Sequence record: MZ868638.1 | DNA length: 64,000 bases | Origin: Escherichia phage vB_EcoM-pEK20 | Strand: one strand, 5' to 3' | Part shown: piece by piece, positions 10,628 to 14,407 of the stretch | How positions within the stretch are numbered: the first letter of the stretch is position 1 | How the letters are laid out: each line of letters starts with the position of its first letter | Made by a program: the position numbers and the translations under genes | The notes under the pieces: generated by a model | What the model saw: the letters and a program-made list of their open reading frames with translations, nothing else | Database searches by the model: none | What the model was told of the DNA's origin: nothing

Positions 10628-11179
10628 TTACTTAAAGATATTTATAATCGCTTTGATAATAGATTTGTTTTCAAGGTCAGGGAATTTAGGGAATTCGCCG
10701 CCGAGATGTTCATGTTTTTCTAAAAGGGCAAAGAATTTTTTGAGCTCTTTAAATTTTCGTTTTTCTTCTCTATTAGCAACCTCTGCGTCAATAAGAGAAC
10801 TTAAAACACTGAATAATTTATAGAGTTCATGAATTTTCTTATCACGTTGAACTACGCGTTTATATGCTTCATCTTCCTTCCACCCGTCGTCGGTCCAAAT
10901 GTCAAATTCACCAGGTTCTTCTGTAGTAACATTTTGAAGAGCACCTGGAGTGTCAATAACAATTTTTTGCTTATCATATGTCCATACTGTTTTTCCGCGA
11001 TGGTCTTCAACATATACCCATTCTTGCTCGCGTTCGTCAAATATAACAGCATAGCCTTCTTTAGGGTCTAAAGGTTTTTTTGGTGTCGAATGAGCCGGAA
11101 ATCCTACGCCTTTTAATGGTTTATAATTTTCTTCTTTGTAAAATTCTTTAGTGTCAAAATAATAGTGATAGAGTTTCAT
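10628..11179 (-). CDS. 38: gp38 distal long tail fibre assembly chaperone (T4 type)
   Basis: 183 aa; MKLYHYYFDTKEFYKEENYKP... matches T4 gp38 as recalled. Confidence 0.9.
   Translation of the reverse strand: MKLYHYYFDTKEFYKEENYKPLKGVGFPAHSTPKKPLDPKEGYAVIFDEREQEWVYVEDHRGKTVWTYDKQKIVIDTPGALQNVTTEEPGEFDIWTDDGWKEDEAYKRVVQRDKKIHELYKLFSVLSSLIDAEVANREEKRKFKELKKFFALLEKHEHLGGEFPKFPDLENKSIIKAIINIFK
10639..10646 (-). promoter_or_regulatory. late promoter TATAAATA for t
   Basis: TATAAATA on - strand 21 nt upstream of t start, inside 3' end of gene 38. Confidence 0.55.
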
Positions 11180-11182
11180 ATT

Positions 11183-11204
11183 ATAAAAAGGGACCGAAGT
11201 CCCT
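11183..11204 (-). terminator. terminator hairpin between genes 37 and 38
   Basis: GGGAC-UUCG-GUCCC on - strand followed by U-run. Confidence 0.7.
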
Positions 11205-11209
11205 TCTCC

Positions 11210-14200
11210 TTATGCTAAACGAACGATATAGTTAAAAGCAACGTTTTTAACAGTGTTTTCTGTATTTCCTGTGGCATTTACAGTTATTGTATGTCCATGG
11301 GAACCAATTGCAACAGTATGAGAATGAGCACCAATACCTACCGAATGGGTATGAGCACCAATACCCACAGTATGAGCATGGTTACCAGTAGCGCTAGTAG
11401 TTCCTGACCAACTATGGGTATGGTTACCTTCTGTTGACGACTTTGCAATATATTGGCTTGTACCAGGCACGACACCGTTGCTTAGGCCAAAACCATCAAC
11501 CTGAGACCCACTAATTAGAGTAGCCCCATTAGGAAATATCCCGGTCGGTTGGTTACTAGGTCCTCTTGGGCCTGTCTGTGAGTGCTGGTGGTTACCAGCG
11601 GCACTAGTATTACCACTCACTGTATGGTTATGGTTACCAGTGGTATTACTGGTCTTAGTACCATAATCAAAGCTTGAAGTCGTTTTGCTACCGTAATCAA
11701 AACTAGAAGTGGTCTTAGTACCTAAATCTGTGCTTGATGCACTTGCACTATGGCTATGTGACTTAACACCGTCTTCTTCTGTACTTAATACAGCACGCCC
11801 AGATGGTTTACCCTTGATAGTTTGACCACGCATATCAGGCAGAGCGCCGGAAGGATACACCGCAGCTAACTTAGGATACAAGTCAGTATCAAACGTCTGG
11901 CCTTCCATGATGGCATAACCTTCAGGAGGTGTATCAGTAGGCCAAGGAATCGGAGCACCAATTGGGTAACTCGAGACAATATCCGTCTTAAGGTTATTTA
12001 TTGTGGTATTCAAGTTAGCAAAATTACCAGAACCACCAGTGATATTACCATCAGTACCAATACGAACATTACCAGCGCCTAATTTACCAGGAGAATAAAA
12101 ATCACCGTTTTTATTAAATTCCCATCCAAGATCCTTTATAACAGCACCAGTAGAAACGCCGTCACCACCTTCGTGATAATGAACTCTAAAGTTACCACCA
12201 TTAATTAAAGTACCAATAGAATAGCAACTATTATTTTGAACGTATCTTTGTTTCACAATAGGAACATAAGTGCTTGTATCTGTTCTATCAATATTCATAT
12301 AGAACGGAGCACGAACGTTTTCATTATTTTGTGAAGCAAAAGAACCGGCTCCAGCAGGTCGTGCAGTATCAGTACATTCAGCGTCGATATATGCCGATTG
12401 TCCTAATTGCATACGGTAATTAGGAGAAATGCGACTATGACTAGTTATAACAACAAGTTTATTATCATTATCAACGGTCACCATATTACCGCCAGCGCCA
12501 TCATCACCTAACGTAACAGAATGGCGCATTTGAACCATACCGTTATTAAGGCTGATACTAAGCGGACGAAGATTACTTATTCCACCACTTTCACCAGCAT
12601 CTTTAGGAGTCGGGATAATATGTAATGATGCTTCTGAACGACGGAAAATAGCACCATATTCAGCATTCCAAATTCTTAATGCATCTGCTGTTCCACCAAA
12701 TTTAGCTTGACCGTTTACAGACAATCCATTATTAGCAACTAAACTAGATTCCGTAACAATCGAGCCGGAAGCAGTAATACCACCGGAAGTTAATAAAGCA
12801 CCGCTGACACGGAATTGAATGGCACCAACAGTTGAACCCGAAGCAGGTGTTACACGTTGAGAATAAAAATGGTATCCTTGTCCATCAGCTACTTCAAAAA
12901 CTGTTTCACGGTAACGATCGCCAGATGCGTTAAATGAATTACCCCACACTTTAACTGTAACAGGGTTTTTGTTTTGACCTGCGCGAGTACCACTGTTCCA
13001 GTATATACTTCTAGTACCATCTGCAGCCGTCGGGGCGTTAAACTGGAATCCCTGATTATCAGGTCCATCAATAATTATGCCTTTATTAAGACGAAAAGCT
13101 AATGTAGAATCAATATTACCTGTTGCAGCGTTAAAGCTAATACTGTTAGCACCGGTTACCAATTTCAAAATACCGGGGTTAATTTCCATACCTTGTTGGG
13201 TATTGATATTCATCTGACCTGTACCACGGAAATAGTGGTTCATTTTACCGCCAGCATTGTACCCGATATGTGTTTGACCGTCTCCAGCATTGTTATTATC
13301 AGCTTGTGTTTGAACTGATAAAAGAGCGGCGTTGGTTCCAGGCATAATCCAAGTTGTGCCTTGGTCCTCGGAACGACCAAATATACCTTTACGAGTACTA
13401 CGGAAACTGTCAGGAGTAATAGAAGCGACAGATTTACCTGAACCAACTAAATCATAAACACCGGTTTTTTTGTATGATAAACCCGTCCCGTTATCGCCTA
13501 GAGCTAAATAAGCACCGAATCCTAAAGCGCCACCATTACCGTAATCGCTTGACGGATATCCTTCAGTCACGGTCCCGATGGCTACACTATTGCGGACGAT
13601 CATTCGGCCGTCATTACGAATACCATATAGTTTAAATAATGGTGTATTACCAGTCCACCAAGAAACTTCATCAGCCAGGCCAGTTTGAGCTGTACAAATT
13701 TCATGGTAAATAGTTCCGCCCGATTTAGCACGAACTTTACGAAGATAGTTTACACCATTTGTTTCTCCGGTTCCAGGATAAACATAGTTAACCAAAGATT
13801 GAGAATCATATTGCCCAAAGGCTTTAGAATCATGATTAATTAAATTAACACTAATAGATGGTGTACTAATAGAAGTTAAAGCAGTTAATTTGCGTGCCTG
13901 GAAAATACCGCCATCAGTAGAAATGAAATGAAATTCTGAATTTTGAGCCCCTGCTGCGGTTCCTTGGCGAACACGCATTGTAATTACGCCTTCATTTTCA
14001 GACTGCGGTTTTGAATATAAAACACCTCTCTCTGATCCATCTGTATTTTCAAACCAAAGATGGGCATTGGAAGTATCATTTGTTGCTCTTGTGTAAAATG
14101 ACCCTCGCATAGATCTAAAAACTAAGGCGGATACGCCTTCAGTAGAACCAATAGGTCCATTTACGGTCATTCCACCGGTTTGTACATAATCGCCGTTTAA

Positions 14201-14407
14201 TTTCAAAAGACCATTGATAGTTACATTTCCATCAACTTGGCCACCTTTAGCAAAACCCAGATCAATGATATTTCCTGAATCGTCTTTAGTAAAAATTGTT
14301 CTATCTTTTAAGTTTATAGCCAATTCACCTTCGGCTAATACTGAAGCAGCAGGACGTGCACCTGCAGTTTTGCTTCTTTTAAATTGTATTTGTTTTAAAG
14401 TAGCCAT
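11210..14407 (-). CDS. 37: gp37 long tail fibre distal subunit (receptor-binding)
   Basis: 1065 aa; C-terminal HxH repeats and ...[15 protein letters not shown] ending as in T4 gp37. Confidence 0.93.
11660..11719 (-). repeat. in-frame 30-nt tandem duplication in gp37 tip ([20 protein letters not shown])
   Basis: two adjacent 10-aa copies where T4 has one, as recalled. Confidence 0.7.

Follow-up and report, generated by a model that had tools for sequence, protein, structure and literature searches.

The window, by which we mean the whole analysed stretch of 64,000 nucleotides from Escherichia phage vB_EcoM-pEK20 (MZ868638.1), carries on its minus strand consecutive open reading frames of 1291, 375, 221, 1065, 183 and 219 aa that follow the order gp34-35-36-37-38-holin. 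Annotations of SSE1, HY126, pEB20, mogra and JK36, Mosigvirus records among them, list the genes in this order too, and the surrounding 12 kb of the window are 93-96% identical to Mosigvirus phages including mogra, pEB20, ZQ3 and JS09. The 1065-aa reading frame (11210..14407, minus strand) is, from its translation, gene 37, which encodes the distal half-fibre of the long tail fibre as a mosaic of known modules, and it takes the place of a T4-type gp37 in the late cluster of genes 34-35-36-37-38-t. It is followed by gene 38 (10628..11179, minus strand), whose 183-aa product is recognised as a T4-type tail-fibre assembly chaperone by its translation and by the Pfam family Caudo_TAP (PF02413). 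The DNA of gene 38 is 94-100% identical to that of the relatives, irrespective of which head allele the relative carries. Since this gp38 is a Tfa/Caudo_TAP chaperone of about 183 aa and not an adhesin of the T2/T6 type, gp37 itself should bear the receptor-binding surface. In the interval from the stop codon of gene 37 to the start of gene 38, a GGGAC-UUCG-GUCCC hairpin followed by a U-run (11185..11208, minus strand) folds as RNA with -16.5 kcal/mol (z = -3.2), and the homologous site in phage G2469 is annotated as a putative terminator.

The nearest relative of gp37 changes along the gene, as seen from sliding-window identity against pEB20, mogra, SSE1 and HY126. From 14407 to about 13830 the gene tracks pEB20, from about 13800 to 12550 it has diverged from all four relatives, and from about 12520 to 11640 it is 99-100% identical to both pEB20 and mogra. 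For gp37 as a whole, no phage record exceeds a coverage of 84-90%, at identities of 85-91%, and the best whole-gene match, to pEB20, covers 84% of it at 91% identity. The protein homologues listed reach at most 515 aa and are mostly prophage Stf proteins and fragments, so that the full-length relatives of gp37 were drawn from the phage collection. By these comparisons it is the combination of modules in this gp37 that is new, and not the individual parts.

The C-terminal part of the protein is homologous to the solved T4 tip, with its collar (D10) and the stem of D11. In a phmmer search of the PDB, the last 296 aa match 2XGF (E=2.1e-89) with the collar and both stem halves aligned; T4 lacks 10 aa where the repeat described below lies, and the head region stays without alignment. 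The Collar (D10) domain (aa 817-864; 11816..11959, minus strand; Pfam PF07484, E=1.3e-11) aligns to the T4 chain in 2XGF. As an earlier note on this DNA had observed, the region at 11213-11731 holds T4-type HxH repeats and a T4-type C-terminal ending, and both translation and motif counting bear this out: the His-x-His series runs along both passes of the stem to a conserved end, with three HxH motifs before the head and five after it, eight in total, versus seven in T4, where four follow the head. The same note was right that the segment between the HxH blocks is longer than that of T4 and different from it, as 52-53 aa lie between NHQH and NHTH versus 34 aa between the equivalent T4 motifs in 2XGF, and HMMER leaves the segment unaligned.

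Its further statement that this region determines specificity in T4 also agrees with published work. In T4 gp37 the stem comprises residues 882-931 and 960-1009 and the tip subdomain residues 932-959 (Islam et al. 2019, PMC6957217), and it is the tip subdomain that carries the LPS- and OmpC-binding residues, I933, N937, G938, G940, G942, G943, S947 and Y949 being the critical ones (PMC6957217). By the limits of Islam et al., the subdomain measures about 47 aa in the window versus 28 in T4, and none of the critical T4 residues can be aligned to the window head. By homology to 2XGF, three gp37 chains would ascend a needle-like stem, make a small head and descend again, and the His-x-His motifs of the three chains would coordinate metal ions along the axis; gp38 would serve as the folding chaperone and the gp37 head would touch the receptor directly. 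The trimeric fold and the eight metal sites are predictions from homology and motif counting. An AlphaFold2 (AF2) monomer model of the last 296 aa, built on a 37-sequence alignment, reached a mean pLDDT of 49 and a pTM of 0.19 and was discarded, since the real fold is expected to be an intertwined trimer.

Paired units in the stem

It is conceivable that the tip was remodelled within this lineage, through a recent tandem duplication together with a divergent head, and that the phage acquired a receptor or host range unlike that of T4. Such a scenario draws on the very features that set the window apart from T4: 10 additional aa, a head with 18-19 aa more than that of T4, and receptor-contact residues without similarity, all of them in the region in which T4 sets its specificity (PMC6957217). 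The additional 10 aa lie in a repeat array. The up-strand of the stem carries three 10-aa units (11650..11739, minus strand), forming a repeat family with a spacing of 30 nt, where T4 has two such units; the down-strand carries the units VGIGAHTHS, VGIGAHSHT and VAIGSHGHT (11297..11390, minus strand), each with an HxH motif, where T4 again has two.

The 30-nt duplication claimed at 11660-11719 is real insofar as two in-frame units adjoin each other there (11719..11690 and 11689..11660), but it does not represent an event in the phage itself. The two units agree at only 23 of 30 nt, with 9 of 10 aa identical, six of the seven nucleotide differences being synonymous and one nonsynonymous (Nei-Gojobori), and all fetched relatives share them. 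A repeat search with a 6-nt seed places the units in a three-copy array with a 30-nt period at 11650-11737 and also detects the three 27-nt units of the down-strand; Tandem Repeats Finder, at a minimum score of 30, lists the 27-nt repeat of the down-strand array (2.9 copies) and does not list the 30-nt repeat. The repeat DNA is 96-97% identical in SSE1, HY126, pEB20 and mogra, whichever head these phages carry. Since the same two-copy arrangement occurs in all 15 fetched T-even relatives, which were sequenced independently, and in lambda Stf, the duplication is neither a chance finding nor a sequencing artefact, the latter a possibility that had been raised along with it. Two FDYG units together with eight HxH motifs are found in each of the 12 fetched phages that share the head allele of the window, and also in pEB20, mogra, JK36, JK45 and lambda Stf. 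The two-copy state is ancient and shared, with T4 a member of a short-stem class, and the part of the remodelling scenario that invokes a recent duplication is already largely refuted.

The class structure emerges from 118 homologous tips in the protein database, in which we took as spans the distance from the first to the last HxH motif before the head and after it. Only three combinations of spans occur, and the up-span exceeds the down-span by a constant 14-15 residues. The short stem, with one FDYG unit and spans of 46 and 32 residues, is found in 79 sequences and has the T4 values, and the long stem, with two FDYG units and spans of 56 and 41 residues, is found in 22 and has those of lambda Stf and of the window. 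A third class, to which P0027 belongs, combines two FDYG units with spans of 42 and 27 residues (17 sequences). The window falls squarely into the long-stem, lambda Stf-like class by its two FDYG units, its 3+5 HxH motifs and its spans of 56 residues up and 41 down. The spans fit a simple rule whereby a lower rung consists of 10 aa up and 9 aa down with an HxH motif, and an upper rung of 14 aa each way.

As far as these sequences indicate, the extra 10-aa unit never occurs without an additional VGIGAHxH unit of 9 aa on the strand that returns. The BLASTP alignment to the prophage Stf protein P0007 contains exactly two gaps, one for the 10-aa unit and one for the 9-aa unit VGIGAHSHT; as both proteins have a head of the same family, the rungs vary independently of the head. 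The extra rung of the window comprises a 10-aa (T/S)KTTSSFDYG unit on the way up, matched by a 9-aa VGIGAHxHx unit on the way down, giving eight predicted metal sites and not seven. The architecture of 2XGF suggests a reason for the coupling: the up- and down-strands of the needle must stay length-matched, so that rungs would be gained or lost in pairs. Because the extra rung is paired in this manner, it sets the window apart from T4 by class and is no local remodelling. As few as two or three ancestral events may underlie the three stem classes, so that the coupling, strong as a pattern, does not amount to an independent statistical test.

The head cassette and its allele

The head lies within an exchangeable cassette of about 180 nt (11422..11602, minus strand), whose limits are set by the two innermost HxH motifs, GNHQH and GNHTH. 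The cassette encodes a head or tip subdomain of 52 aa (11426..11581, minus strand) in the position of T4 residues 932-964, which is the predicted receptor-contact surface. At the DNA level the cassette matches SSE1 and HY126 at about 100% identity and pEB20 and mogra at only 25-40%, which amounts to unalignable, while its flanks are 94-100% identical to all four phages, with 95-100% on the side that leads through gp38. The breakpoints fall within the codons of the innermost HxH motifs, and megablast splits the match into two pieces around the cassette in relatives at 77% identity. It is likely from this layout that the head would have been acquired as a cassette of about 180 nt through homologous recombination in the conserved flanks that encode the HxH motifs.

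The allele itself is in wide circulation. A tblastn search with the 52-aa head retrieved 30 of 50,697 phage records with identities of 71-98%, each of them a T-even phage of E. coli or Shigella; the allele is present at full length in 28 of these records, and in five of them 51 of the 52 residues are identical. The window aligns with the allele of SSE1, HY126 and JK42 over 52 aa without gaps at 70% identity or more, and the fetched carriers span Mosigvirus, Tequatrovirus (slur14) and Dhakavirus (ESCO10, C6). With 51 of 52 residues identical to SSE1, HY126 and GADS24, and with a long stem of the class shared with lambda Stf, the tip does not deserve the term "remodelled" that the earlier note had applied to it.

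Exchange of the cassette among phages may be recent in at least one case. GADS24 differs from the window by no synonymous change in the head and by 27 in the flanks, which points to recent transfer of the cassette. Within the allele, the mean dN/dS is 0.35 in the head versus 0.09 in the flanks, a ratio that does not rise above 1 and that suggests a head under relaxed or diversifying selection. A blastn search with the head cassette found no match in 5,426 complete E. coli genomes, so that nothing points to a recent exchange with prophages, even though prophages have homologues of the head at the protein level.

One codon of the head is private to the window, in both the DNA and the protein alignments. 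It is GAT (Asp; 11495..11497, minus strand), at a position that holds Val in nine and Leu in three of the 12 fetched allele-mates, and an exact 35-nt pattern around this Asp/Val codon had no match in IMG/VR. The nonsynonymous change to Asp is the sole difference in the head from SSE1, HY126 and GADS24, and it could be a neutral change, an adaptation or an error.

Receptor and host range

Which receptor this head would bind can be approached through phages that carry the same allele or the same stem. JK42 (MK962756; Kaczorowska et al. 2019, PMC6832132) shares 46 of 52 head residues with the window, the private Asp position being among the six that differ. By RB-TnSeq, JK42 depends on ompC in four O157:H7 backgrounds and in K-12 BW25113 (bioRxiv 10.64898/2026.07.23.740414; the K-12 result is cited there from a companion study). 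We take the JK42 of the preprint to be the JK42 of GenBank from the shared collection names JK32, JK36, JK42, JK45 and CM8. JK36 and JK45 are also listed as OmpC phages (10.64898/2026.07.23.740414), and their heads represent two further Mosigvirus/Tequatrovirus alleles (ARSGPQIQAG... and NEGTYFSSYG...), both mounted on the long stem. More generally, the 17 OmpC-specific Straboviridae are all reported to possess Gp37 tips, which vary extensively between alleles (companion preprint 10.64898/2026.04.02.716166), and two Mosigvirus phages with a T4-type gp37 are OmpC-dependent (Vitt et al. 2024, PMC10844046). A search of the literature on SSE1, HY126 and GADS24 found no receptor data.

Given the OmpC use of the allele-mate JK42 and of JK36 and JK45, the receptor class is most probably OmpC, as in T4, and thus unchanged, by analogy with these phages. 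The tip comes close to being that of a phage with T4-like receptor use, in that the same allele serves the OmpC-using JK42, but falls short of identity, with 46 of 52 residues shared. The head allele would instead tune which OmpC or LPS variants, and hence which strains, are recognised, with the receptor class probably the same, and at the level of strains the host range may differ from that of T4. Taken as a whole, with origin and receptor included, we consider it highly probable that the window, from a Mosigvirus-like phage, encodes a T4-type long tail fibre whose gp37 ends in a receptor-binding tip put together from already-known modules.

Against this explanation, lineage-specific remodelling towards a receptor or host range unlike that of T4 is improbable. 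Apart from repeat copies that differ at 7 of 30 nt, largely at synonymous sites, and a two-copy state that all fetched relatives and lambda Stf possess, it has to contend with a head that recurs at 51 of 52 residues in deposited phages and with the OmpC use of JK42 and of phages with two other head alleles. An equally improbable, composite proposal is that the 47-aa tip subdomain, or the private Asp within it, confers a specificity unlike that of the allele-mates and that, separately, the paired rungs reflect a general but unstated design rule of HxH needles. The specificity in such a case might be for a distinct OmpC variant, for another porin or for LPS alone.

Slightly less probable still is the narrower idea that the private substitution of Val or Leu by Asp at 11495-11497 is a host-range mutation, for example towards another OmpC variant or towards binding of LPS only. 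The substitution alters charge, it falls where the allele varies most, as the one head residue that separates the window from SSE1, HY126 and GADS24, and at the receptor-binding interface of T-even phages single substitutions can switch porin specificity, as exemplified by RB68 (10.64898/2026.04.02.716166). However, it is one substitution that could equally have no effect, have arisen by adaptation in the laboratory or reflect an error of sequencing, at a position where the 12 allele-mates tolerate both Val and Leu. An artefact of sequencing or assembly, in the form of a collapsed or expanded repeat or a chimera of two phages, can be dismissed as very improbable: although repeats and mosaic joints are error-prone sites of assembly and the whole gp37 lacks a full-length, near-identical match, the copies of the repeat have diverged from each other and keep the frame, the gp37 reading frame is intact, and independent genomes, SSE1 and HY126 among them, reproduce each module as well as the repeat-to-head and head-to-stem junctions at 97-100% identity.

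The tip assembled from known modules is therefore a standard allele of a well-known modular adhesin that has been deposited many times, and its biology is already known. It provides a worked example of host-range modules in T-even phages, in which the head cassette is exchanged by recombination at the innermost HxH motifs, the stem shifts in length only by matched up and down rungs, and the chaperone stays the same whichever head is present. Because the example indicates where to set the junctions and that rungs must be swapped pairwise, it is useful for the engineering of gp37/Stf chimeras. For receptor prediction of the kind needed in therapy, OmpC should be the default assumption when a gp37 head looks new but sits beside a T4-type gp38. 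As by-products, the rule of paired rungs and the limits of the cassette have practical use and do not constitute a discovery about the locus.

Comparison with known fibres

A change in repeat number has a seeming precedent in T4, in which duplications of a small gp37 domain reportedly alter host range (Tetart et al. 1996, J Mol Biol 258:726, as cited in PMC9603124). Those duplications are said to be recent and laboratory-selected and to be delimited by His boxes, the conserved His motifs reportedly serving as the substrates for recombination. Like them, the repeat in the window is an in-frame change of repeat number in the C-terminal part of gp37. In contrast to these duplications, the window unit is without a His motif, ancient and fixed across genera. 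A duplication of the His-box-delimited type was accordingly considered and rejected, as the unit contains no His, its copies agree at only 23 of 30 nt, and it is shared across genera and with lambda.

Lambda Stf is homologous to T4 gp37 and is assembled with the Tfa chaperone. The C-terminus of lambda Stf (orf-314), a reference sequence confirmed to be that of lambda, resembles that of the window in its long stem, its two FDYG units, its 3+5 HxH motifs, its spans of 56 and 41 residues and its identical end. Unlike the window, it carries another head allele (about 45 aa, TSGLRMNSSGW...) and another N-terminal attachment, and it belongs to a siphovirus. The opposite combination is found in the E. 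coli prophage Stf proteins P0007-P0011, which share with the window the head family SQTGPR...PTGxFPxGxT...SG...GTSQ...KSSxEGNHTH, at 66% identity over the tip overall, but present it on a short, T4-like stem that lacks both the 10-aa and the 9-aa unit.

T4 gp37 itself (2XGF; D10, D11) has in common with the window the Collar, the up-and-down HxH stem, the C-terminal end and the adjacent T4-type gp38. The window differs from it by a stem that is one rung longer, with 10 aa more on the way up and 9 aa more on the way down, and by a head of 52 aa that is unrelated in sequence, and yet, by analogy with JK42, the two probably share OmpC as their receptor class. The nearest counterparts are Shigella phage SSE1 (MK639187), the Escherichia phages HY126 (PP658200) and GADS24, Shigella phage JK42 (MK962756) and about 25 more records, which combine the head allele of the window with the long stem. 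Over the 173-aa tip the window is 99.4% identical to SSE1 and to HY126 and 91.9% identical to JK42. Upstream of about 12050, however, the gp37 of the window follows pEB20 and mogra and not SSE1 and HY126, so that the gene as a whole is a different mosaic with a tip in common.

Probable exchange of the gp37 head

The head of gp37, the distal half-fibre of the long tail fibre, appears to have an evolutionary history distinct from that of its surroundings. When the gene is compared with that of Escherichia phage GADS24 (OQ703618), which carries the same head allele, there are no synonymous differences in the head cassette (11426-11581), versus 27 in the flanking 145 codons. Such a disparity suggests that the exchangeable tip segment of about 180 nt moved horizontally, and very recently, between gp37 genes that are otherwise diverged. 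Within this head, the GAT codon at 11495-11497 (Asp) is private to the vB_EcoM-pEK20 genome, the position being occupied by Val or Leu in each of the 12 allele-mates that were fetched.

Mosaicism of the shaft and a lambda-like record

As judged from sequence comparison, the gp37 shaft is mosaic to the same degree as the tip, or more. The middle of gene 37 (approximately 12550-13800, minus strand) shares just 40-89% identity with each of the four fetched relatives (SSE1, HY126, pEB20 and mogra), its nearest relative switches every few hundred bases, and any one phage record accounts for at most 84-90% of the gene.

Among public records, MW057783.1 (48,361 bp) is labelled as a Campylobacter phage, "Campylobacter phage CJLB-4", but its tail-fibre end is 99.4% identical to the side tail fibre (Stf) of lambda, at coordinates nearly those in lambda. 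The record looks like a lambda genome carrying a different name.

tRNA genes and the hairpin preceding gene 38

ARAGORN found no tRNA genes across the whole 64-kb window (1-64000), so any T-even tRNA cluster that the phage may possess would sit elsewhere in its genome.

In the gap separating the stop codon of gene 37 (11210-11212) from the ATG of the chaperone gene 38 (11179), RNA folding predicts a strong hairpin with a tetraloop, GGGAC-UUCG-GUCCC, and a U-run after it (11185-11208, minus strand; -16.5 kcal/mol, z = -3.2). The hairpin may act as a terminator; the homologous site in phage G2469 is annotated as a putative one. Alternatively, the hairpin could draw the Shine-Dalgarno sequence near the gene 38 start codon: the sole good candidate, AAGGAG (11206-11211), lies 5' of the hairpin and 27 nt from the ATG. 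For T4 gene 38, a structure that moves the Shine-Dalgarno sequence close to the start codon has been proposed.
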